From an uncultured candidate division Zixibacteria bacterium (GTDB lineage Bacteria > Zixibacteria > MSB-5A5 > GN15 > FEB-12), in assembly GCA_963806185.1 (NCBI GenBank), contig CAWDXE010000001.1, positions 256,001-320,000 on the forward strand: 64,000 nucleotides of DNA. Reading direction: 5' to 3'. The translations under genes and the position numbers were made by a program. The notes below the pieces were generated by a model, which worked only from the letters and a program-made list of their open reading frames with translations, was not told the origin of the DNA and did no database searches. Shown piece after piece: positions 8,948 through 64,000 of this stretch. The first letter of the stretch is position 1. The number at the start of each line of letters is the position of its first letter.

Positions 8948-10496
8948 TCAATTGGAATGGAATGTACTCAGTGCGGGGGAATGCAGCCCGTAGGCAGCCG
9001 GGATCTGGTTCGCGAACTGGAGAATCGGCTCAGGGAACAGACCAAACAGAACGACGCCCACCAAGCCAACCATGACCACGATCATCGCGGCACGGGAAGG
9101 CCGGAATGCAGCGGTGTCGGCGGTGGGATTGAAGTACATAGCGCGAATGACTCCGGCATAGTAGTAGAGGCCGAAAACCGAAGTGAGCAGGCCAATGCCG
9201 ACCACCCAGTAGAGCCAGGAGAAGCTCGGGCCTACGCCGGCCATTTTGATGGCCGCGGCGAAAACGTAGTATTTCGCGAGGAAACCGGCCAGGGGCGGTA
9301 TGCCGGTCAGCGACAGGAGAAAGACGCTGAGGGTACCGGCCAGGAAAGGAGAGCGGCGCGACAGGCCGTTGTAAGCGTCGATTTCGCATGAGCCGGTCTT
9401 GTCTTCGATGATGGCTACGATGGCAAAGGCACCCATGTTGGCGAACAGGTAAGCGAACATGTAAAAGCCGACCGAAGCGAGGCCGAGCTCGTTGACGGCG
9501 ATCATGCCGATCATGACGTAACCGGCCTGGGCAATCGACGAATAGGCCAGCATACGCTTGATGTTGGTCTGGCGAATCGCCAGTACATTGCCGATCACCA
9601 GTGCGGCATCGCCAGAGCGCCGGCAATGATTCCCCAATCGTTGGGGCTCATGACCGGATCGTAGAAGGCGAACAATCCGTTGACGATGATCTTGGCGAAC
9701 GCGACCAGCCCGGCGGCCTTGGAACCGACCGACAGGAAAGACGCGACCGGGGTCGGCGCACCTTCATAGACATCCGGCGCCCACTGGTGGAAGGGCGGCA
9801 GCGCCAGTTTGAAGCCGAGGCCGGCCAGAATGGTCGCGGTTGCCAGAATCAGCACCACGCCGATATCACCGCCATTGCCCAATTGGGTGATGGCGATATT
9901 GACTTTCATCTGCAGAATGTCGGTCGTGCCGGACAGACCGTACAGGAACGACAGACCGTAGAGCAGCACGGCCGAGGAGAAGGCGCCGATGATCAGATAC
10001 TTGATGCCGGCTTCGACGGAAAGGCGATCATCCTTGAAGAAGGCGGCCAGCACGAACAGCGGGATGGTGGTCAGTTCAAGGCCGATATACAGCGACAGCA
10101 ATTCGTTGCTTGAGCGCCAGAAACATCATGCCGACGGTCGAGAGCAGGATCAGGCCGAAGAACTCGCCGCGATGGTTGATGATCTTTTCGCTGAACGATG
10201 CCGAACGACGAGCCGATGGCCATGAAGGCGGCGCCGAGGAAGATGATTTTGAAGAACAGGGCGAGCGGGTCGTTGAAGAACATCGTCCCGAAGCCAGACC
10301 GAAACCGTAGACACCGGCGCAAGAGAGCCCACAGAGAAGCCGGCGACAACCAGGCCGACCATGGCGAGGTAGGCGACGCTGTGGCCGACTTACGGCTGGT
10401 GAACAGGTCGTAGGTGAACACCAGGAGCGCCCAGCCGAAGAGAATGATCTCCGGGGCCATCAGCCAAAGGTTATAGTCGGGCAGTGTCGTTTCCAT
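8948..10496 (-). CDS. nuoN: NADH-quinone oxidoreductase subunit N (apparent frameshifts)
   Basis: Fragments in three frames: APEIILF, EAGIKYLIIGAFSS, PFHQWAPDVYEGAPTP, KRMLAYSSIAQAGY, GIPPLAGFLAKY. Confidence 0.9.
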
Positions 10497-49369: not shown

Positions 49370-51675
49370 TTATTGGGCCGCCTGCTGGTCAGCGCTGTTC
49401 TTGTTGGACTTCCGAGTGGCTATCCAATAGAGAAATACACTCATGGCTGCAAACGGCACCAGGGTCCACAGATCACTCTCGGCCCACGCGCCGAGCCAAT
49501 GCGATTTGTCAAACGCGTCATTCCAATTCATAATGAAGAATATCGCCTGCGTGAGCCCGGCAATCGCGCCACCGGCAATCAGACCGCTGGCCAACAGTAC
49601 GCCCGGGGAGAATTCAGATTCCGCAGCGCTCACGCCCTTGCGCCGGCGATCGACCAGCATTCGGATGATGCCGCCGACAAAAATCGGCGTGGAAGTTGAT
49701 ATTGGCAGATACAATCCAACTGCAAACGGGAGCGACGAAACACCGACCAGTTCCATTATCAAAGCCAGCGCGATGCCAACGAGCACGAGCGCCCAGGGAA
49801 GTTTGTGTGTCAGGATGCCGTCAATGATCAAGCTGAAAAGACGCGCCTTAGGTGCGTCATACTTGGTGACCGGCATCAATCGATGCGACAACGCGCCGGT
49901 TGAATCGACCAGATAACTGCCCGCCTGAATACCATCACGATCGTCAGTGAGTTTCAATATCTTCTGCGGGCCGTCCACGGTCAAGAATGTCGGGGTTGAA
50001 TCCGGCAGAATGCCGGCACGGAATTCTTGATATGGCGCTTCCGTCATGCGTACCGCGCGGTGCAGATCGGTGCCGCAGACGCCAGGGTCGATCAGGTAGA
50101 TGATCTTGCCGACATCGTTAACGAGGTAGCGACCGGTGGGAATACCATTTGTCGGCTCGGGAATGGATATCTGACGGTACGTCTTGCCATCGTACTCGAC
50201 AAGCTTTGCGTCGGCCGGGACGCTCGCGGTGAAATCAGGATAGTTGCGGGCCGAGTAGGTGGTCATAGCCTGATTGAGAGAGAGGAGTGTCCAACCGATT
50301 ACCAACGCACTGGTGGCGACGCCGACCAGAATACCTATTTGCTGCCGTGACGGTGTCGCACCCACCAGGAAGCCTGTTTTCAAATCCTGCGAAATCGTGC
50401 CGCCGTTTGAGGCCGCGACACACACGATCGCTGCCGTAGTCAGAGCCATCACGCGGAAATCAACACCCGTCCATCCGACGAGCAGGAAAAGGAGGCAGGT
50501 AATAAGCAATGTGGCGACGGTCATGCCGGAGATTGGATTGGACGATGAACCGATCTCACCGGTGATTCGACTCGACACGGTGACGAAGAAGAAGCCAAAG
50601 ACAACAATCAGCGCCGAGGACGCGAGATTGATGCCAAGAATCGGCGCCAGCCAAATCCCGATCACCAGGATGAGACTTCCGCCGAGAACATACGGGAGCG
50701 GAATGTCCTGCTCGGTACGAAGTACAATTACCTTCTTGCCCGACTGCGAACCGGCCAACGATTTCATACCGCGCTTGAACGCCCCGATAATGCTCGGAAT
50801 CGAACGAATCAAGCTGATGATACCACCGGTCGCCACGGCACCGGCACCAATGTATAGGACGTATGCGTTGCGGATCGCTCCCGGACTCATGTCCTTTACC
50901 AGTACCTGGGTCTCGGGAAAGAGGGGCGCGCTCAGACCATCGCCGATTAATTTGATAAGTGGAATGATGACGATGAAAGCGAGCGAGCCGCCGGCCATCA
51001 TGTTGGCTGCGGTCTTCGGGCCGATGATATACCCCACGCCGAGCATGGTCGGCGCGACTTCCGCCGAGATGGATGCACCCCGGAAGAAATTGATGGTCCA
51101 GTCGGATGTTTCTTTCCAGAAGCGGCTGATCAAGTTGAGAAAACCGAAGACAAAACCGAAGATGCCGCCAAGGAAGACTGTTTTCGCCGACGTTCCTCCC
51201 TTGTCGCCCGCGATCAACACCTCCGCACATGCGGTGCCCTCGGGATAGGTGATCTTGCCATGCTCCTCGACTATCAGTCCGTGACGCAAGGGGATCATCA
51301 TGAGAACACCAAGCGTCCCGCCCAGGAGCGCTACCAGCAGGATGCGAAAGAATTCAATGTCCTGCCCCATGAGGAGCAACGAGGGTAAGGTGAAAACGAC
51401 GCCGGCCGCGATCGACTCGCCGGCCGAGCCCACGGTTTGCACCATGTTGTTTTCGAGGATGGTGGCCTTGCCGAGAGCACGGAATATCGTAATCGACAGC
51501 ACCGCGATTGGGAATCGACGCCGACACGGTCAGACCGACCTTTCAAGCCAAGATAGACGGACGAAGCGGCAAACGCGATGCCCAGCACCGCACCGAGGAT
51601 CAGTCCCCGGAGTGTCATTTCGGTCATCGACTGATTGGCTGCAATGTAGGGTTTGTGCTCTGTCGACTCGCTCAT
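49370..51675 (-). CDS. Oligopeptide transporter, OPT family (apparent frameshifts near 51505-51545)
   Basis: MSESTEHKPYI...EMTLRGLILG; LENNMVQT, YPEGTACAEVL, SSNPISGMT, QDLKTGFL, FAVGLYLP. Confidence 0.9.
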
Positions 51676-51809
51676 ACGGGTAGCTCCTCTGTCGCGGACA
51701 GATGTTGCGTAAAGGCCGATCCAGCCGGTCTCAGGGACCGGCACACATTGGGGACATCGTAGTAAGTTTTGGGTTCGGACACAAGAGGAGAATGGTGGGG
51801 AGGTGACTT

Positions 51810-51899
51810 GTACCCCACCGCCTATGCGGTGGGGTATTTGAAAGTCAGGATCCACAGAAGATTTCGTCCGGGGCAGGCCAGAAGGCCTGCCGCCCACGG
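51810..51899. repeat. REP-like composite repeat, copy 1
   Basis: GTACCCCACCGCCTATGCGGTGGGGTAT...GTCAGGATCCACAGAAGAT plus GGGGCAGGCCAGAAGGCCTGCCGCCCACGG. Confidence 0.75.
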
Positions 51900-56260: not shown

Positions 56261-57007
56261 TCAACTAATCTGTATCAAATTGAAGGGCAGCATCGCCCAC
56301 ATTGCCCAAAATGCCCAGAGACAAACCACAATCAATGCCGCCCGGCCCTTGGATACGCCGGCCACGACTGACAAACCCAGCGCCACGAGAATCGCCATCC
56401 AAATACTGAAAATGTCAAGCCGGTCCAGACCTCTGAACAGAGCTGTACTCTGCAACTCGACGGGCAGGAACACCGCTGGTCCTAAATGGACCTGATAACT
56501 CTCTTTGGCGACAATTAGTCCGGCCTTTATCAGTTGCTCTGGGACCGTGACAAGGAACACGAAACTCGTCATCGAAAAGAGCTTGCCGAACGTGGCAGTA
56601 TTGGAACCGATCTGTACTGCAAGCCAGAGGAGCGCAGCCAAGGACAGGACTTTGGCCGCATGAAGCGATGACAAGAGAACGGTGCCCATCGCCAATTGTA
56701 AAGAAGATACTCCGTGGGTTCGCTGAGCCTCGATATTATCAATGCGGCGCGACACTTCCTCAGCACTCAAAGTCGGATCGCTGCTGATACGAGCCTTCAT
56801 ATCCTCCATGCGATAGCGGCTCGTCACCGCCTCATAGCCGACCGAGACTAGCGCACAAACAATGATCGGAATGAGCCATCGACGTGTCCGGGCCAACGTC
56901 TGAAAGGCTTGCCGTGGTGCGGTTAATACGTTGAACATCGTCGTCAGGTAATCGTCGACCGACGTGGCTGTCGGTTCCACCGGCTCAACACTCATTGCAG
57001 GTTCCAT
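56261..57007 (-). CDS. Yip1 family membrane protein
   Basis: VLTAPRQAFQTL...WLIP; LDIFSIW...GLSVVAGVSKGRA. Confidence 0.75.
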   Translation of the reverse strand: MEPAMSVEPVEPTATSVDDYLTTMFNVLTAPRQAFQTLARTRRWLIPIIVCALVSVGYEAVTSRYRMEDMKARISSDPTLSAEEVSRRIDNIEAQRTHGVSSLQLAMGTVLLSSLHAAKVLSLAALLWLAVQIGSNTATFGKLFSMTSFVFLVTVPEQLIKAGLIVAKESYQVHLGPAVFLPVELQSTALFRGLDRLDIFSIWMAILVALGLSVVAGVSKGRAALIVVCLWAFWAMWAMLPFNLIQIS

Positions 57008-57029
57008 TTCCCATCCCTCCATTAGTTCA

Positions 57030-57833
57030 TCAGTACTGAGCGAGTGATCCCGTTCGGCGGGATTGATTGAATCCCGCGCGGACAGCCAACAGGCCTAGCG
57101 GTAATGTTACGAGCGAAATAACTCCGAGTATAGCCAACTGCGGCGCTATCGTGCCTGTCGATGCATTCTTGATGAGAGCCAGGCGAAGCGCGTCAAGCGC
57201 ATAGGTCGTGGGGAGCAGCATCGAGATCGGTTTGAGGTACGCCGGAAGGTATTCGACCGGAAAGAGCACGCCCGAAAACAGAGTGGTTAGAGCGGTGAAT
57301 GCCCACGAAATCGGGTCGCCCACCTTGGTGACGATTATAACTCCGGCGCTCATAAGCCCAATGCCGGAAAGCGACGTGACCGTCAGGACAATCGCCGCCA
57401 GAGCAGCAGGCAGATTGATGTCCATCGGAATGCCGAATACCAGAATGACAACGGTCAAGAGCAAGGCGACATTTAAGAACGCCTGAACGAAATTCATCAA
57501 CCCGGAATAGAGCAGGATAAGCTCCAATCGAGTATTCGATAACAGGAGAAACTCAAGGGTGCCCATCTGCTGTTCTGAACGAATAGTGCTTGAGAATGAG
57601 CTCAGCGAGACACCGAGGAAACCTGAGAATGCCGTGCCGATAATCAGGTACGCCAACAAGTTCCCGCCATACTGGGACAGTGCCGGGAAGCTGTTGCCAT
57701 CGTTTAAGAATTTCCCCATGAACGTAAACTGGAGCAAACCGACAAAGCTACCGACAATTCCGAGCGCCAGCGCAGTCTTGTAACTAATAAGGGTGATGAA
57801 CCCACGCTTAATGAATAGCCATGCTCGATACAT
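57030..57833 (-). CDS. ABC-2 type exporter permease
   Basis: EQQMGTLEFLLLS, FSGVLFPVEYLP, LPTTYALDALR. Confidence 0.9.
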   Translation of the reverse strand: MYRAWLFIKRGFITLISYKTALALGIVGSFVGLLQFTFMGKFLNDGNSFPALSQYGGNLLAYLIIGTAFSGFLGVSLSSFSSTIRSEQQMGTLEFLLLSNTRLELILLYSGLMNFVQAFLNVALLLTVVILVFGIPMDINLPAALAAIVLTVTSLSGIGLMSAGVIIVTKVGDPISWAFTALTTLFSGVLFPVEYLPAYLKPISMLLPTTYALDALRLALIKNASTGTIAPQLAILGVISLVTLPLGLLAVRAGFNQSRRTGSLAQY

Positions 57834-57837
57834 TGCA

Positions 57838-58776
57838 TCACCCCGCTAACTGAATGAACACGTCTTCAAGCGACGCAGTATAGGTATTGGTGCGAACCAC
57901 TTCCAGACCGGAGGCAGATACCTCAGCCAGCACAGCGGCCATATCGAAGGAGCCGTTGTACGAAATGGTGATTCGATTGCCAGTCGCGGTAAGCGCCTGG
58001 AACGCCGATACCGCGCGTATGCGCTCGACCAACCGGCTCACACGGTTATCACCGGCAACATCACTACCTTCAAAGTCAAACTCGATCCGCTTCTTATTGC
58101 TGAACTTGTGAAAATCCGCCAGTGCACCTACCTTGAGCAGTTTCCCCTCCTTGAGAAAGCCAATGCGGTCAGAAAGGCGTTCTGCTTCGGTCATATCGTG
58201 GGTGGTGAGCAAGATAGTCTTCCCCTGCCGCTTCTGATCGGCCAGAATTTCGCGGATGGTGCGGGCCGACGCCGGGTCGATACCGCTGTTTGGTTCGTCG
58301 AGGAGGAGCACTTTGGGATCGTGCAAGAGGGCCCTGGCCAGTGCCAGACGCTTTTTCATCCCCGTCGAGTAGCGCATATATTGCAGCCGTGCGTCCTTAT
58401 CCAGCCCTACCAAAGCGAGCAAAGTCTGAATTCGCGTTTTAAGTGCGTGCCGGGGGATACTGTACAGACCACCGAAGAACTCAAGATTCTGTGCCCCGGA
58501 GAGACGGTAATAGAAGCTCCGTTCCTCGCCAAGCACCAGGCCGATACAGGCGCGGGCTTGATACTGGTGGGTGTGCATATCGAAACCGCAGACTCTCACG
58601 GTTCTCGACTGAGGGATGATAAGGCCGGAGATGATGCGAAGCAGCGTAGTCTTTCCGGCCCCGTTGGGACCAAGGAGGGTGAATATTTCGCCGCCCCGGA
58701 CATTTAGGCTGATCTCTGCCAGCGCTGGCAGAGATTTCCCGGAGAAGCTATAACCAATGTCGGTCATTGACAGCAT
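57838..58776 (-). CDS. ABC exporter ATP-binding protein
   Basis: GPNGAGKTT, YSTGMKKR, LLLDEP, TTH. Confidence 0.92.
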   Translation of the reverse strand: MLSMTDIGYSFSGKSLPALAEISLNVRGGEIFTLLGPNGAGKTTLLRIISGLIIPQSRTVRVCGFDMHTHQYQARACIGLVLGEERSFYYRLSGAQNLEFFGGLYSIPRHALKTRIQTLLALVGLDKDARLQYMRYSTGMKKRLALARALLHDPKVLLLDEPNSGIDPASARTIREILADQKRQGKTILLTTHDMTEAERLSDRIGFLKEGKLLKVGALADFHKFSNKKRIEFDFEGSDVAGDNRVSRLVERIRAVSAFQALTATGNRITISYNGSFDMAAVLAEVSASGLEVVRTNTYTASLEDVFIQLAG

Positions 58777-58778
58777 GG

Positions 58779-59495
58779 CTATTTTTGCTCCGCGCGCACA
58801 CTCTTTGATGCCCATCTGTGCTGAATGAGAAGATTTGCGACTCCATAGAGAATTGCCGGCGTGAGACACAAGAACAGCGTCAGATTGTCGTTAACGTCTG
58901 TGCGCAAATGGAAGAAGATCAGGGCCGGAAGGACAACAGTGGATCGACAATACACGTACCCAAAGAACACTTCTACCGGAAGAAACTTTGCAATTGCTTC
59001 AGGCGGAATATCCTGCGTCAGAAGTATCGCCAATGCACTCACGATGACGATTGCCAGTTTGCCTACAAAGCTCTGTCCATAGCGCGGCACAAGAACTCCG
59101 ATGAGACCCGCTCGGAGGAACAACTCCTGCGAAACAGCCGAGGTCGCAAGAATGCCCGTCAGTCGCCAATCTGTTGGGAAGCGCTGAACGTCAAAGATCA
59201 AAGCAACCAGAGTGAGCAGGGCGATGGCCAACCATATCGGGCGTTGACCTCGATGACTCACAAAACCGAAGAGGCTGGGGGCGGTATCTCTTTGGTATGC
59301 CAGGATAACCGCACAAAGGAAGAAGAGTGAGTAAACGCCAATCGCCAAGGCCGCGCTGATGTCTTGGTTGCCAAAGATTCCGCCTGATCGGATCAGCCGA
59401 GCCTCACACAGTGAGGCAACGAAAAAGACCATTGCCAAGCCAGCAACAAGTCGTTGGGTCGGCTGCCATGTACTGAGTTTGTTATCCATGTTCAT
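58779..59495 (-). CDS. CPBP/Abi (CAAX protease)-like membrane protein, degenerate
   Basis: SQELFLRAGLI (EExxxR-like), FFGYVYCRS...PALIFFH; multiple TM segments; AGGAG RBS. Confidence 0.55.
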   Translation of the reverse strand: MNMDNKLSTWQPTQRLVAGLAMVFFVASLCEARLIRSGGIFGNQDISAALAIGVYSLFFLCAVILAYQRDTAPSLFGFVSHRGQRPIWLAIALLTLVALIFDVQRFPTDWRLTGILATSAVSQELFLRAGLIGVLVPRYGQSFVGKLAIVIVSALAILLTQDIPPEAIAKFLPVEVFFGYVYCRSTVVLPALIFFHLRTDVNDNLTLFLCLTPAILYGVANLLIQHRWASKSVRAEQK

Positions 59496-59618
59496 GGGAC
59501 TCCTGCGTTGTTCGTAGTGCGCACGGCACAGACGTAGGCAATGATGCCGACCCCGACTGTTTCAATACTCCATTACCGCCGTACAGGTGTTACGTTCAAC
59601 GCTATGCGTGGCGTTCGT

Positions 59619-60305
59619 CTAATGTTCCGCCTGACGAATCAGCCCGGCGAATACAACGTAAATCACGCCCCCCGCGAGAAGCATCTGAATACTAGCTTGA
59701 CTCATCGATGGATTCAACAGTCGCACAGCGTCGCAGGTAAAAGACGCCAAAACACTACCGGTAATCGGGACAAATGATGAACTCAAGCAGTTGGATGCAA
59801 CATCTCCCATTATCGTCGCGTGCGGGTCAGGGTGGACCAGGGCACAAATGCACCCCGTAATAACCACAGAGAGTACAGGGACCGCCGCTCCGTTGCCCCA
59901 TCTTTCAATGATCAACCTCATGCAAAAGGCCCTAAGAATGACTGAGCTCATGAACAGAAGGCACAGTCCAACGATGATATGAGAGCTTGATGAATGCGGC
60001 GATGACTCTTTGCCCACTGAGGAAAGAGCTACTACTGTGATAATAATAGGGATACTGTACCATACTTTTCCCGAAAGAAGAAGACCCCAGTCCGAAGCAC
60101 TACTCTGACGAGCCTTAACAGATCGATACGCATAAACCAGGAGCCCAACAGCCATGAGAACCAATCCCGCCAACAGCACATATTTGATCGCCGCTGAACC
60201 TACTTCGCCTTCTGGTGAAACAAATTGAGCGTGCGTGAAGCGTGCCAGCACGGCGAAGGCGACCATTGCGGCCACCGTCATAACGACAGAGACTCTGGAT
60301 GACAT
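59619..60305 (-). CDS. CPBP/Abi-like membrane protein, degenerate
   Basis: GGGAGG RBS before ATG 60305; DWGL, SSVILRAF, ICALVH, ITGSVLA in CPBP motif order. Confidence 0.5.
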   Translation of the reverse strand: MSSRVSVVMTVAAMVAFAVLARFTHAQFVSPEGEVGSAAIKYVLLAGLVLMAVGLLVYAYRSVKARQSSASDWGLLLSGKVWYSIPIIITVVALSSVGKESSPHSSSSHIIVGLCLLFMSSVILRAFCMRLIIERWGNGAAVPVLSVVITGCICALVHPDPHATIMGDVASNCLSSSFVPITGSVLASFTCDAVRLLNPSMSQASIQMLLAGGVIYVVFAGLIRQAEH

Positions 60306-60335
60306 GAGATCCTCCCGATGATGTTGATTATTGCT

Positions 60336-60364
60336 AACATACTCTGCCTTTGTTATCACGTCAA
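60336..60364 (-). promoter_or_regulatory. sigma70-like internal promoter for the membrane/ABC genes
   Basis: Minus strand TTGACG-17 nt-TATGTT. Confidence 0.5.
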
Positions 60365-60383
60365 GTGTTTCCCCAACGGGACC

Positions 60384-60415
60384 TGCAGGGGAGATGATCA
60401 TGTCACTCCCCTGCA
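60384..60415. terminator. Stem-loop downstream of the precursor peptide genes
   Basis: TGCAGGGGAG-12 nt-CTCCCCTGCA perfect 10-bp stem; no clear U tract. Confidence 0.55.
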
Positions 60416-60462
60416 TCTCTTGCTAGTGGAAAAAGCGGGAGGCGATTTTGCGCCGGGTCCAC

Positions 60463-60585
60463 TCAATCGCAGACAGGGCCGGTCCGTTTCCCTTCACAGT
60501 ATATCTTGCAGTATTGAACGCATAGAAGCACACAAGGCCACAGTCCGAGCTGTGTGTCTTCAATTGGTTCCACAAACCACTTCAT
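60463..60585 (-). CDS. Putative RiPP precursor peptide 3 (40 aa)
   Basis: Hand translation MKWFVEPIEDTQLGLWPCVLLCVQYCKIYCEGKRTGPVCD; GGAAGGA RBS; below the ORF-track cutoff. Confidence 0.8.
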   Translation of the reverse strand: MKWFVEPIEDTQLGLWPCVLLCVQYCKIYCEGKRTGPVCD

Positions 60586-60611
60586 GATGTCATCCTTCCT
60601 AGCTGGCATGA

Positions 60612-60782
60612 TCAAGTCGAATGTACGTTGCAGTACTTCTCACAGCCAACCCCTCCATTCAGAGCCCAGGTGGCGAGGAAGAATACGAAACCCAGCCAGC
60701 CGCACAATATCATGCGATTCGACGGCTGAGTTACCGTTGAGTCTAATTCGTCGGCGCCAGTCGGTTCAACAACCCATTTCAT
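60612..60782 (-). CDS. Putative RiPP precursor peptide 2 (56 aa)
   Basis: MKWVVEPTGADELDSTVTQPSNRMILCGWLGFVFFLATWALNGGVGCEKYCNVHST; GGAGA RBS. Confidence 0.75.
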   Translation of the reverse strand: MKWVVEPTGADELDSTVTQPSNRMILCGWLGFVFFLATWALNGGVGCEKYCNVHST

Positions 60783-60842
60783 AAGTACACTCTCCAATCG
60801 GACTGAATTGATCCTGAATAAGGCGTTCGTTTGTCGCAACTG

Positions 60843-61022
60843 CTATGATATCAGTAGCAATCTGCAGAGCGTGCTCCTGTTTTCGCAGTAAACTGGGCAC
60901 GCTGTTCGGCAATAGCAACTCTTACTGCAGCAGCTGAATACGAAACAAAACATGCTTCCGCTACACCCTTCATCCAGTTCTGAGAACGACTGCAGTACTT
61001 CCGGGGTCACAAGCCATGTCAT
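60843..61022 (-). CDS. Putative RiPP precursor peptide 1 (59 aa, 9 Cys)
   Basis: MTWLVTPEVLQSFSELDEGCSGSMFCFVFSCCSKSCYCRTACPVYCENRSTLCRLLLIS; GGAGG RBS. Confidence 0.8.
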   Translation of the reverse strand: MTWLVTPEVLQSFSELDEGCSGSMFCFVFSCCSKSCYCRTACPVYCENRSTLCRLLLIS

Positions 61023-61098
61023 TGGCACCACCTCCATTCTTTTTACTTTTTACGGACTTCCCACATACTGATTGGCACTCTCGCATGAAGATCTCGAT

Positions 61099-62468
61099 CT
61101 AGATTCGGGAACTCTCCTGCTGGGCGAGGCGCTTCAGTTCCAACATACTTGGAAGATTGTGGCGAAAGGATGTACACACGTTCTTGTGTGCGTCTTCCAG
61201 TTCATCAGAGTACAAGGACTTGTATGGGCACCCCCCCATGCACGAGGGCAGAAATGCACATTGCTCACAGCCCATGGGCTGTCCGAAAGCGGTCCATCCC
61301 ACCCATTTCACGTAGTTGTCGGTGAGAGCGATGCCGTCAGGTGTACATGTGCCCACCCGTTTATCTTGCTGGCCTACACTATTCCAACAAGTTTGCACAT
61401 CGCCGTTTGGTTCGATGACATATGATCCTTGTCTGACCGCGGAACATGGGCTGAGAATCCGCGACGGATAGTCCACTTCGGTGAAGCCATTTGCGAATGC
61501 TGCTCTGTAACCCTTCACTAAAAACCGGGCAAACTCCGGCGTATTCATACAACTCGAGCTTCCGCTCAAGCACGAACCGCCAAACTGAAGAACCTGTCCG
61601 AAGCCAATCGAAAAGTTCTTTCGTCGGTGCCAGCCCAGTTCTCTGAGTCGCCAAAAGTAGTCGTCCACGCATGACATGTTCCGCCGATCAACGTTCATTC
61701 GCAAGGAGATGTTGAGCAGTTCCTCATCTGCGATACGCATCAGATTCTCGACTATCTTGTCATAAGTTCCAGCGCCTGAAGTGAGAGGCCGACGCGCGTC
61801 ATTGATTTGTCGGGGGCCATCCAACGTTACTTGAAGGAATCGAACTTGTACCCTACGGACAAATTCCAACCCCTCTGGGTCAAGAAGGTAGCCATTGGTA
61901 ATCATGCCCGCGGAGTAACGAGCTTTCTTCTCACGGCAAATACGATCAAAATCGGTTGTCAGTCGCTCAATAATTGACCGTGCTAGCATCGGTTCACCGC
62001 CGTACCACGTCACCGACAAACAGCCTCTCTCTTCCACAAGTTTCTCACACAGATTGACGATATGCTGACAAATATCGTCCGGCATGGTTCTGGTCTGGAA
62101 CTCGGAAAGTGATTTCAGCGCAGTGTTCTCATAGCAATAATCACACGCAAAATTGCAGGCATACGTCGGGATAATTGTCAGTCCCAGTCCCTTCTGACCA
62201 AACCTCATGGCGTAGTGCGCCGCTCGAATCGCATCCAATTCATCCACATCGGCGGGGGTGATGAATCCACCCTTTCTTAGGTTCGCTACCAAGTCATCCT
62301 GCCCGTCGCCGTTTGACTTCTCCTCGTTCCATCAACGTCACAATACCGCCGGTAGCTCTCCTCATCCATCTCTGCCAGCCCGCAGGTCATGGCGTTGAAG
62401 GCCAGGCGTTTCCCGTTCTCTAGGTCCACAAAGTGATTGTACCGCGACGCCTTCACACGTTCAGCCAT
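61099..62468 (-). CDS. Radical SAM/SPASM peptide maturase with N-terminal RRE-like domain (one apparent frameshift near 62325)
   Basis: KASRYNHF...AFNAMTCGLAEM / LVANLRKGGFI; CNFACDYC; WYGGEP; SPASM C...C...CEQCAFLPSCMGGC...C; AGGAGG RBS. Confidence 0.9.
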
Positions 62469-62502
62469 AGCTCCGCCCTCCTAACCGGCGACCTTCTCCG
62501 AC

Positions 62503-62586
62503 TTCGTGCGGCCGTCCGAATGGGCATCCGGAGATGGTCTTCCCACAGTCTCCGGACACCCCCGGACGGTTTCGCAACTTCACGAA
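62503..62586 (-). other. Long stem-loop in the 5' leader of the radical SAM gene
   Basis: Nested inverted repeats TTCGTG/CACGAA, CCGTCCG/CGGACGG, GGGCATCCGGAGA/TCTCCGGACACCC. Confidence 0.55.
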
Positions 62587-62626
62587 TCGAAAGATCACCT
62601 GCGTTCAAGTCACGGTCACACAGTAA

Positions 62627-62641
62627 TCAAACGACATGCCG
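62627..62641 (-). promoter_or_regulatory. Possible sigma54 promoter (variant -12)
   Basis: Minus strand CGGCATG-TCGT-TTGA; GA replaces the consensus GC. Confidence 0.45.
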
Positions 62642-62748
62642 ATACGGCCTCCCCGCACGCAGAATCCGCTAACCCGTTACTACGTAGAAACATGGTGCGA
62701 CATTGCTGTCTTTGAGAGGAGTTCGATGACGCCACCATTTCGAGTTTG

Positions 62749-62841
62749 TTTACGAATTTCTCGGGGTGATTCGTAAAGGGGTGATTAACCCGTTGTGGCG
62801 CAAGATGCATGATTTGCGAATTGGTTTACGAATTTCGTAAA
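62749..62841. promoter_or_regulatory. Cluster of TTTACGAA half-sites, probable enhancer (UAS)
   Basis: TTTACGAA-T-TTCGTAAA (62825-62841), TTTACGAAT...ATTCGTAAA (62749-62777), TTTGCGAATT (62813-62822). Confidence 0.6.
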
Positions 62842-62862
62842 AGTGGAGGGGTGAGGGAGATC

Positions 62863-64000
62863 TTAGAGATCGCCCTGCTTGAGACGATAACGGATCGTGC
62901 CTTCGCTGATGCCCAGTCGACGCGCAGCCTTGCTCTTATTCCCTCCGCACTCGGCCAGCACGGTCGCGAGCTGGACGTCGTCGGAGATGGCGAGTTCATC
63001 AACAAATGCGCCCGCCATACGAGACAGACTATAGCCTTGCATAACCCAGAGTCGCTTGATTGTGTTTTCAAGCTCGCGGACATTGCCCGGCCAGTCGTGG
63101 TGTCCGAGTGCCTGAACTAATGCGTCAAGCTCTGCGTCATGGTTTGAACAGCAGGCCGCTCCTTGCAAGAAGTGTCGTACCAGCAGTTCAACATCATCCA
63201 ACCGTTCGCGGAGTGGCGGCAACGTCAGCGTGGCCTGATTGAGCCGGTGATAGAGATCGGCCCTAAATTTTCCAGAGCGAGCGCATTCGCGCAGATCGGC
63301 GTTGGTCGCGACGATTAGGCGGAAGGCGACAGGCTGGTCCGTATCGTCGCCCACCCGGCGCACTCGCCGAGTCTCAAGAACTTCCAGAAGCTTGGCTTGC
63401 AGTTCTGGACTGGCCTCACCGATTTCATTGAGAAACAAGGTGCCGTTTTCGGCTTGCCTGATCAACCCTGGGCGGTCTCGTTCGGCTCCGGTGTAAGCCC
63501 CCTTCCGGTGACCGAACAGCTCTGATTCGATCATCGCGGCCGGCAACGTGGTCACATTCTGACTGACAAACGCGCCGGTACAGCCGGAATGCTCATAAAC
63601 ATAGCGAGCCAGCAGGTCCTTGCCGGTGCCGGTTTCCCCGGTAAGAAGCACTGTCATGTCAGTGGGTGCCAAGTTGCGAGCTAGTTCCAGAACAGACGAC
63701 ATGGTCTTGTTGGCGGTGATAATCTGCACCGGTGCAGAGCCGCTGGACGGCTTGACCGGCGGCATAGGCAAAGTCGGGCGATGCAGAGTCTGAAGCGCAA
63801 CCTTCACTTTGTCTATGTATGGTGTGACCTGTTCGGATTCAAAATACTCCTTCGCCAAGAAAAGCAGGGCAATGCTCTCGGCTGGCTCAAACACGCCGGA
63901 GCGAGCGGCCAGATAGCGCGTGACGGCCAGTTCGTAGCGAGACGAAATCTGATTGAACAGGTCGATGGCCCGCCGGAACCAATCGCGAGCCTTGTCCTGC
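62863..64000 (-). CDS. sigma54-dependent Fis-family activator with N-terminal TPR-like region (start outside the window)
   Basis: GETGTGKD, ESELFGHRKGAYTGA, FLNEIGE, FRADLYHRL, WPGNVREL, GNKSKAARRLGIS; frame open to the window edge. Confidence 0.9.
   Translation of the reverse strand, partial: QDKARDWFRRAIDLFNQISSRYELAVTRYLAARSGVFEPAESIALLFLAKEYFESEQVTPYIDKVKVALQTLHRPTLPMPPVKPSSGSAPVQIITANKTMSSVLELARNLAPTDMTVLLTGETGTGKDLLARYVYEHSGCTGAFVSQNVTTLPAAMIESELFGHRKGAYTGAERDRPGLIRQAENGTLFLNEIGEASPELQAKLLEVLETRRVRRVGDDTDQPVAFRLIVATNADLRECARSGKFRADLYHRLNQATLTLPPLRERLDDVELLVRHFLQGAACCSNHDAELDALVQALGHHDWPGNVRELENTIKRLWVMQGYSLSRMAGAFVDELAISDDVQLATVLAECGGNKSKAARRLGISEGTIRYRLKQGDL

Follow-up and report, generated by a model that had tools for sequence, protein, structure and literature searches.

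Relationship of the locus to described systems

Clo7bot clusters place tandem precursors at one enzyme (TIGRFAM description), and the skf operon includes SkfC, which we take to be a CPBP protein. These systems, together with Crp, are the main points of comparison for the gene cluster described here, a run of ten genes in one direction at 56261–64000 on the minus strand of a 64,000-nucleotide stretch of a Zixibacteria genome (the window, G000:C1:256001-320000, where G000 is the genome and C1 the contig; positions below are counted within the window unless another contig or a related locus, numbered L, is named). As judged from the open reading frame (ORF) list and from Pfam and NCBIfam profiles, the cluster encodes a sigma-54-dependent activator, a radical S-adenosylmethionine (SAM)–SPASM maturase with a recognition element (RRE) for peptides that are made on the ribosome and modified after translation (RiPPs), three short Cys-rich precursors (P1–P3), two CPBP-like membrane proteins (m1 and m2), an ABC ATPase, an ABC-2 permease and a Yip1-family protein; all ten lie where an earlier annotation of the window (the original prediction) had placed them. 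We read the cluster, with a probability of roughly 60%, as a new ranthipeptide-like family in which one maturase acts on three precursors, the products are probably exported, and the CPBP proteins probably bind rather than cut.

CrpC of Methanococcus voltae (TIGR04463) was shown in 2026 to bind three clusters and to install thioethers, judged to be ranthionines, which are located in CAVD, CAGM, CAGD and CPLVL motifs; a substrate without its first five residues is processed less, and the authors suggest that CrpA binds metal (accessible part of PMC13692751). The window enzyme and its relatives share with CrpC the RRE–radical SAM–SPASM layout, an identically arranged set of seven SPASM Cys and similar active-site residues, TIGR04463 is their best or second-best NCBIfam match, and the extreme N terminus is where CrpC recognizes its substrate. 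CrpA, in contrast, is a 298-residue Cys-rich repeat protein, whereas the peptides here have 36–63 residues and no repeats; in addition, the loci described here carry export and CPBP-fold genes, and their enzymes reach 307–367 bits against the TIGR04463 cut-off of 525. Clo7bot, which the original prediction named as the nearest analogue, is indeed one of the two nearest curated families, the other being TIGR04463. The two systems have in common a related maturase (272–342 bits against TIGR04334), short Cys-rich peptides and a weak leader similarity, confined to positions 1–21 of 2 of 44 family peptides (see below); they differ in the Trp leader found here, in cores that are longer and mutually dissimilar, in scores that miss both Clo7bot cut-offs, and in the position of a Clo7bot-named homologue outside this clade in the enzyme tree.

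More distant systems share single features. The skf operon of Bacillus subtilis likewise combines a precursor, a radical SAM enzyme, a putative protease and export/resistance genes, but it has one precursor, a sactionine product and a twitch-domain enzyme, SkfB, that is a distant match (E 8e-10), and the CPBPs of the window lack catalytic residues; several precursors per cluster are already known, RumC having five (accessible part of PMC8172795). Cys-every-fifth systems (CefA/CefB, NF038108/NF038107) and CLI_3235-type systems resemble ours in regular Cys spacing and in a related maturase (195–270 bits), with CLI3235/CLOSPO-01332 clusters appearing as weak atlas leads at 0.78–0.84, and differ in that the maturase misses the cut-off of 600 and the best peptide scores 17.8 bits against the CefA cut-off of 30. 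When the window maturase body, four full-length clade enzymes and the 44 peptides were scored against CefA/CefB, SCIFF, CLI_3235/CcpM and FlmE/OhkG, no maturase or precursor reached the NCBIfam cut-off. None of the 44 peptides reaches any NCBIfam cut-off, including that of 31 for Clo7bot peptides (TIGR04333; best 12.7 bits), and none has a Pfam match at E 0.05; the comparison proposed in the original prediction thus places them in no curated precursor family. Atlas matches of P3 are unnamed clusters or fall below 0.9 and serve as leads only.

Sister cassettes in Zixibacteria carry a paralogous maturase (33–37% identical) and the same kind of leader, M-x-[YF]-[LI]-[VIE]-x-P, on precursors of 28–48 residues (M-x-Y-L-[VI]-D-P...LYG or M-R-F-I-E-Q-P). 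These cassettes have a second radical SAM enzyme; the present locus has only one, together with a Trp leader and a CPBP/ABC-2/Yip1 module. The leader type is wider than this peptide family, recurring in sister cassettes both across the phylum and in the window's own genome. One such cassette, with two radical SAM genes and two 41-residue M-V-F-I-I-D-P...LYG precursors, lies at G000:C6:209363-212761 (minus); a second radical SAM/SPASM gene pair, the first member 32% identical to the window enzyme, lies at G000:C6:222195-224641 (plus), and no precursor was found there by the leader patterns used.

No description of the system was found in literature on Clo7bot, FlmE or Zixibacteria with radical SAM peptides, subscription papers lying outside that search, or in the accessible part of PMC9062424; the word Zixibacteria is absent from the searched supplements of PMC10288494 and PMC13692751, the 15,000-enzyme dataset of the former being perhaps not in searchable form. 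The family is undescribed, within a known kind, and scores below the membership cut-off of each known family; what is unusual in it is that its protease-like partners are dead. Its distinctive features are unlike cores in a fixed order and the swapping of intact and dead CPBP modules.

Three precursors and a family of 44 peptides

Directly behind the maturase gene lie three short genes on the minus strand. P1 (60843–61022) encodes 59 residues with nine Cys and belongs to a Cys-dense class; P2 (60612–60782) encodes 56 residues with three Cys and a long hydrophobic core, and an Illumina contig is identical to the window over 60596–60746; P3 (60463–60585) encodes 40 residues with five Cys and the core C-x3-C-x3-C-x2-Y-C-x-G-K, and is 51% identical to the third peptide of the related locus L001. 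Each has its own GGAG/AGGA-type ribosome site 5–12 nt upstream, starts with M-[KT]-W-[LVF]-V-[ET]-P and contains C-x-x-Y-C-[EN], with a net charge of −4, −2 and −2 (P1, P2, P3) ahead of the first Cys, so that the three ORFs, ribosome sites, common leader, acidic linker and Cys motif of the original prediction are all present. In the whole 3.65-Mb genome a strict motif scan returned P1–P3 and nothing else; a looser scan returned 11 ORFs, with a ribosome site only in P1–P3 and in one poor Leu-start ORF. When a leader score was applied to all ORFs of 25–89 residues, P1–P3 ranked 1–3 of 23 hits, the score having been trained on a set that included them. A fourth candidate at C1:1022143 was rejected: it is antisense to a 1021-residue gene and has no ribosome site.

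P1–P3 have orthologues in L001 in the same gene order, with 22/56, 23/56 and 21/40 identical residues, of which 13, 16 and 12 are encoded with silent codon changes, and mismatches fall mostly at third codon positions. Because order is kept and changes are mostly third-position, P1–P3 are, on this comparative evidence, real genes.

To place the peptides in the context of relatives, we examined loci with a similar enzyme. The closest loci are labelled by their submitters as Zixibacteria, "bacterium" or Ignavibacteria, and those labelled Ignavibacteria recur among genomes of the phylum of the window. A search of 285 phylum genomes with the L001 enzyme gave matches in 37 at E 1e-80, 19 of these with at least 41% identity; 18 of the 19 loci were used, the contig of G166 stopping at the gene. 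Peptides with the strict W-leader pattern occur in 16 of the 18 loci and in none of 44 loci under 40% identity, a control set from which L019 was left out (no downstream DNA) and in which about a dozen loci have 1.5 kb or less of downstream sequence. A looser pattern gave 44 peptides of 36–63 residues in 17 of the 18 loci (one to five per locus), so that the multi-precursor radical SAM locus with a conserved leader and variable cores, as first predicted, and the leader expected in ORFs flanking homologous enzymes both extend to relatives. The looser pattern found no W-leader peptide in L123, or in the extra loci L046 (truncated enzyme) and L081 (contig end). In L123, 3.7 kb from the enzyme, a 33-residue M-K-F-I-V-T-P peptide with a strong ribosome site is encoded at about 9235–9336 (minus). 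These counts describe conservation among relatives that are not independent, and carry no statistical test. The two loci obtained from a scan of metagenomes gave no information on peptides. When the 44 peptides were combined into a profile, it matched 16 of the 285 phylum genomes, all from the training set; against 1.84 billion proteins it gave 15 matches, all with the same leader, ten of them new (metagenomic), and ten that were looked up were named no more precisely than "hypothetical protein".

The family leader is M-[NKT]-W-[LI]-V-x-P, with W3 in 44/44 peptides (required by the search) and P7 in 43/44, and the first Cys is mostly at positions 16–23. Neither feature of double-glycine/C39-processed bacteriocins was found: the 44 peptides have no conserved double-Gly before the first Cys, and a Pfam scan of 11 proteins revealed no C39 peptidase domain, in agreement with the original prediction. 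C-x-x-x-C occurs in 38/44 peptides, C-x-x-[YFHW]-C in 16/44 and C-x-x-Y-C in 10/44. Cys pairs spaced by 4 (69 versus 36.6), 5 (55 versus 35.6) and 7 residues (50 versus 35.0) exceed all 500 shuffles, and spacings of 1–3 are depleted; residues directly before Cys are enriched in H (2.7×), Y (2.4×) and F (1.5×). By eye, cores fall into classes of fixed order, the Cys-dense class always first behind the enzyme, a long hydrophobic class second and a short class ending in aromatic-Cys third. An alternative class (D type), again by eye, has a C-[DNP]-x-C end with hydrophobic residues behind it. In L115 (7812–11143), two near-identical 36-residue peptides with Lys-rich tails are encoded in between four CPBP genes, two of them intact and the other two degenerate.

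A maturase related to CrpC

The maturase gene (61099–62468, minus) is assembled in two frames, a 60-residue N-terminal ORF (62468–62286) and a 397-residue body (62292–61099), with the break near 62320–62335. In relatives the enzyme is a single ORF of about 450–480 residues, a few being broken as well (L120, L127 and L128). An Illumina contig (X1; 151 nt, depth 2) matches 62191–62318 with one difference (99%+ over 128 nt) and then diverges; read by eye, its loose end lacks two single bases of the window, near 62319 and 62332, which restores the frame. The runs X1–X5 give no more than scattered 151-nt pieces. Frame changes were found in 6 of the 39 genes of the assembly that could be tested against relatives, the maturase gene among the six. 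From the in-frame read-through of X1, the frequency of frame changes and the intact ORF of relatives, the break is most likely an assembly error.

TIGR04463 and TIGR04334 (the Clo7bot maturase) are the best NCBIfam matches for the window body and for four full-length clade members, all below cut-off: 306.7 bits for the body and 320–367 for the full-length enzymes against 525 for TIGR04463, and 271.5 and 317–342 bits against 600 for TIGR04334. In 17 aligned sequences the CxxxCxxC motif, the seven SPASM Cys and two extra linker Cys are invariant, save one SPASM Cys in one row, and the locus combines an RRE-bearing radical SAM/SPASM enzyme, intact cluster ligands and an adjoining Cys-rich precursor, as expected of the ranthipeptide class. 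The L001 enzyme, as modelled (pLDDT 81), begins with a strand-rich domain and continues with helices; its best match is CteB, over about 470 columns, which fits an RRE. Six positions facing the active site (as defined in the accessible part of PMC10288494, and placed here by motif, not by structure) read Y-Y-I-T-W-N in the window enzyme, F-F-T-S-H-Q in CteB and, by eye from the supplement of PMC13692751, F-F-V-T-W-E in CrpC, a profile near that of CrpC and different from CteB at positions 3–6. A quick tree was built from 109 of the 120 homologues, each at least 400 residues long (the 397-residue window body and CrpC being left out). In it, a branch with support 93 sets apart the 53 top-ranked rows and two others, with TIGR04463-named and Clo7bot-named rows outside this group. 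By profile and motif, the maturase is a close relative of CrpC, an enzyme shown to make sulfur–carbon bridges.

CPBP-like proteins and export genes

The two CPBP-like proteins named in the original prediction are recognizable by fold or by a weak profile match only, and both lack the catalytic set of the family. The m1 gene (59619–60305, minus; likely start 60305, longest ORF from 60416) encodes a membrane protein with no Pfam Rce1 match, whose model has Rce1 (4cad) and SpdC (6u0o) as top fold matches (E 0.07–0.08, probability 0.96–0.98); m2 (58779–59495, minus) scores 21.8 bits against PF02517, just under the cut-off of 22.4. At E 0.01, PF02517 is matched by 15 of 23 members of the CPBP family. 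Catalysis in CPBPs depends on a dyad of the first Glu and the motif-2 His; non-catalytic members are known (accessible parts of bioRxiv 10.64898/2026.10.04.756536 and bioRxiv 10.1101/2023.06.07.544157), some of which confer bacteriocin resistance and some of which regulate sensor kinases (the former source). The motif set of active members, EExxxR, FxxxH and HxxxB, is incomplete in both window proteins: m1 has S-S for E-E and D for the motif-3 His (S-S-R/H/D), and in m2 Q takes the place of both the catalytic Glu and the motif-2 His (Q-E-R/Q/H-D). Because neither has the catalytic set, m1 and m2 are more likely binding or immunity proteins than processing enzymes.

Among 29 CPBP homologues, a set that leaves out the poorly aligning membrane protein of L124, the three motifs are complete in 14 and incomplete in 15, including m1 and m2. 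Intact and degenerate labels are clustered on the CPBP tree (two changes, versus about ten in shuffles), where m1 groups with L001 and L113, and m2 lies among intact members (support 91/94). D-type cores occur in 6/8 loci with an intact CPBP and in 0/7 with degenerate CPBPs only, a lead in that the class was defined after the data were seen.

Downstream are genes on the minus strand for a DrrA-like ABC ATPase (57838–58776; PF00005, 96 bits; TIGR01188, 241.5 bits, below cut-off), an ABC-2 permease (57030–57833; PF01061, 45.7 bits) and a YknW-like Yip1-family membrane protein (56261–57022; PF04893, 50.4 bits; NF052650, 79.6 bits against a cut-off of 110). In 13 of the 17 peptide loci, genes for CPBP-like and ABC proteins follow and, contig permitting, those for the permease and Yip1 as well; two loci stop at a contig edge behind the CPBP gene. 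The permease is the best-conserved gene (68–86% to relatives), while peptides and CPBP proteins (<30%) diverge fast, a pattern expected of product/partner pairs. The export genes closest to those of the window belong to L127 (permease 86%), yet L127 carries the D-type/intact version, and L001 has orthologous peptides yet a permease of 77%; this comparison suggests that the peptide–CPBP block has been exchanged. A decayed copy in L046 (5162–9377, = L164) has an enzyme cut at 186 residues, no precursors and a degenerate CPBP, with ABC and permease genes kept. In L168 (7870–12575) and L169 the same ABC/permease pair lies behind a more distant radical SAM gene (28–31%) and a different accessory gene, and L169 encodes a 39-residue M-E-F-I-A-N-P peptide with a Cys-Cys-Cys end.

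Proposed pathway and alternative explanations

The genes, the leader, the conservation, the loss of CPBP motifs and the kinship to CrpC are established; from these genes, profiles and models we infer the chemistry and function as follows. The activator would drive the operon from a sigma-54-like promoter, and the RRE would bind the N-terminal M-x-W-[LIV]-V-x-P of the three precursors. Core Cys would then be joined to residues at i+2/i+3 as ranthionine-type thioethers, giving several rings per core that, with Cys four to five residues apart, would be short and non-overlapping; leader binding and ring formation of this kind are, taken together, reasonably probable. The ABC-2/Yip1 module would export the products or protect against them, export being a step that we consider likely. 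Since the cluster encodes no recognizable active protease, the leader would be cut by a protease outside the cluster or kept. The products may serve together as a multi-component competition peptide that acts on membranes, the CPBP-fold proteins giving self-protection; we propose this role tentatively, at somewhat less than even odds, and it agrees with how fast the peptides and their membrane partners diverge.

Several observations weigh against this scheme. Typical bacteriocins are cationic, and the cores here are neutral to acidic (net charge −4 to +3), which speaks against a competition role; there is no fixed acceptor, the enrichment of Y, R, H, N, K and D at position +3 from Cys being no more than about two-fold; and many core Cys could instead form disulfides or bind metal. 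L123 has the enzyme and no W-leader peptide, 2 of the 17 peptide loci (L122 and L124) have no CPBP/ABC module, and in some loci, for example L166, L167 and L171, no peptide-bearing enzyme of the clade lies upstream of the export-module permease, which is therefore not exclusive to this pathway. The six-residue active-site profile is common to most of the 120 homologues, including Clo7bot-named and TIGR04463-named ones, and hence marks the clan rather than a linkage type, supporting a CrpC-like mode of action only moderately.

The linkage itself could be a different one, with sactionine (sulfur-to-α-carbon) rings or C–C/C–O bonds at aromatics, for instance the Tyr that precedes the last Cys. 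The enrichment of aromatics before Cys and the 16/44 peptides with C-x-x-[YFHW]-C fit this idea, as does the finding that SPASM enzymes alike in sequence can differ in chemistry (accessible part of PMC10288494); the nearest characterized relative, however, makes ranthionines (accessible part of PMC13692751), and Cys is found in all peptides whereas Tyr stands at the motif in ten, so we regard other linkages as unlikely. Chemistry at an invariant Tyr, offered in the original prediction beside Cys thioethers, is rejected on the same count, while the thioether remains the likeliest linkage from the kinship to CrpC. With the same enzyme and peptides, the products might instead bind or detoxify metal, some Cys being crosslinked and the rest chelating outside the cell or in the membrane. 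Cores with up to ten Cys, mostly neutral or acidic, and the metal binding suggested for CrpA by the CrpC authors (accessible part of PMC13692751) would suit such a role, to which we nevertheless give a low probability: the conserved gene set holds no metal transporter, receptor or metal regulator, and the cores seem more variable than expected of a ligand with a fixed job.

Another view would have the peptides act as strain-specific signals and the CPBP-fold proteins as their receptors or signalling scaffolds, and we find it less probable still; a variable peptide with a variable membrane partner would also suit a pheromone system, and non-catalytic CPBP proteins regulate sensor kinases (accessible part of bioRxiv 10.64898/2026.10.04.756536), but the conserved gene set has no sensor kinase and the activator has a candidate signal ORF of its own upstream. 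We give least weight of all to a decaying locus with a truly broken enzyme gene and CPBP genes as inactivated remnants. The assembled frameshift, the existence of decayed copies (L046) and the place of m2 among catalytically intact CPBPs (support 91/94) point that way; against them stand X1, one contig of depth 2 that crosses the break in frame, the 6/39 tested genes with frame changes, and a CPBP motif loss that is common to 15/29 homologues in intact operons. A more elaborate version of the ranthipeptide-like reading would make the locus a swappable, polymorphic weapon cassette of an uncultured phylum: a promiscuous ranthisynthase would staple three cores unrelated to one another, with links from Cys to aromatic or to aliphatic residues among them, the product would have three components and keep its leader, the dead CPBPs would be repurposed as matched receptors or immunity proteins, in a second version a different type of core would go with an active CPBP cutting CAAX-like after a thioether-linked Cys, and a secreted-peptide/TPR sigma-54 switch would control expression. 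Taken as a whole, this chain of events is doubtful.

On present evidence the ranthipeptide-like reading does not imply new chemistry. Its value lies in what it offers for testing the little-studied TIGR04463/Clo7bot clan, namely 44 short natural substrates from 17 genomes and ten from metagenomes, in contrast to the only characterized clan member, which acts on a large protein that is hard to map by mass spectrometry (accessible part of PMC13692751). Peptide stapling would profit from a single enzyme that accepts cores behind a leader of seven residues. Loci whose CPBPs are intact and loci whose CPBPs are dead offer a natural comparison for whether CPBPs of bacteriocin clusters cut, protect or sense, and the family adds to the predicted small-molecule repertoire of Zixibacteria.

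Regulation and neighboring genes

The 3′ part of the gene for the sigma-54-dependent activator with TPR repeats lies at 62863–64000 (minus; PF00158, 195 bits; HTH_8, 43 bits); the full ORF in the genome encodes about 710 residues and starts about 1 kb past the window edge, and a similar activator is found upstream in several related loci. After the gene comes a 17-bp palindrome with 8-bp arms (62825–62841, no strand), which is, from its sequence, a candidate binding site for the activator. A pattern based on the sigma-54 −24/−12 consensus picks out a putative promoter at 62626–62641 (minus) with GA in place of GC, a form also seen in L001 and L008. Similar sites lie upstream of the enzyme in 10/16 loci, 79–349 nt away, compared with 2.5–9% of shuffles per locus, with a pattern that was loosened after the window was seen. 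The genome has an RpoN box, and a scan for sigma-70 promoters and terminators gave only chance-level matches. The activator presumably controls the operon.

Ahead of the activator, here and in the majority of the relatives examined, lies a small ORF whose product has a hydrophobic N terminus and an acidic motif of the G-D-D type. In the window genome it lies just past the window (G000:C1:320916-321263, minus; G-D-D-x-x-W/P-like motif), and ORFs of the same type are found at L003:414-1224, L005:3519-4337, L008:2571-2921, L010:1643-1972, L046:36-242, L081:23-247 and L125:1793-2146. Where complete they encode about 100–115 residues, mostly with a signal-peptide-like start, and L003 and L005 have two copies. 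The layout of small ORF and TPR activator resembles Rap/Phr-type peptide signalling.

Several relatives, but not the window, have a gene for a protein of 200–240 residues with an N-terminal membrane anchor before the enzyme (L001:717-1388, L008:5581-6297, L009:5809-6447 and L046:4708-5328); a "thioredoxin-like" label for this gene was dropped, there being no Pfam hit. Further along the window, 49370–51897 (minus) holds a large membrane-transporter gene, by eye oligopeptide-transporter-like, with a frameshift near 51500 that is probably another assembly error.

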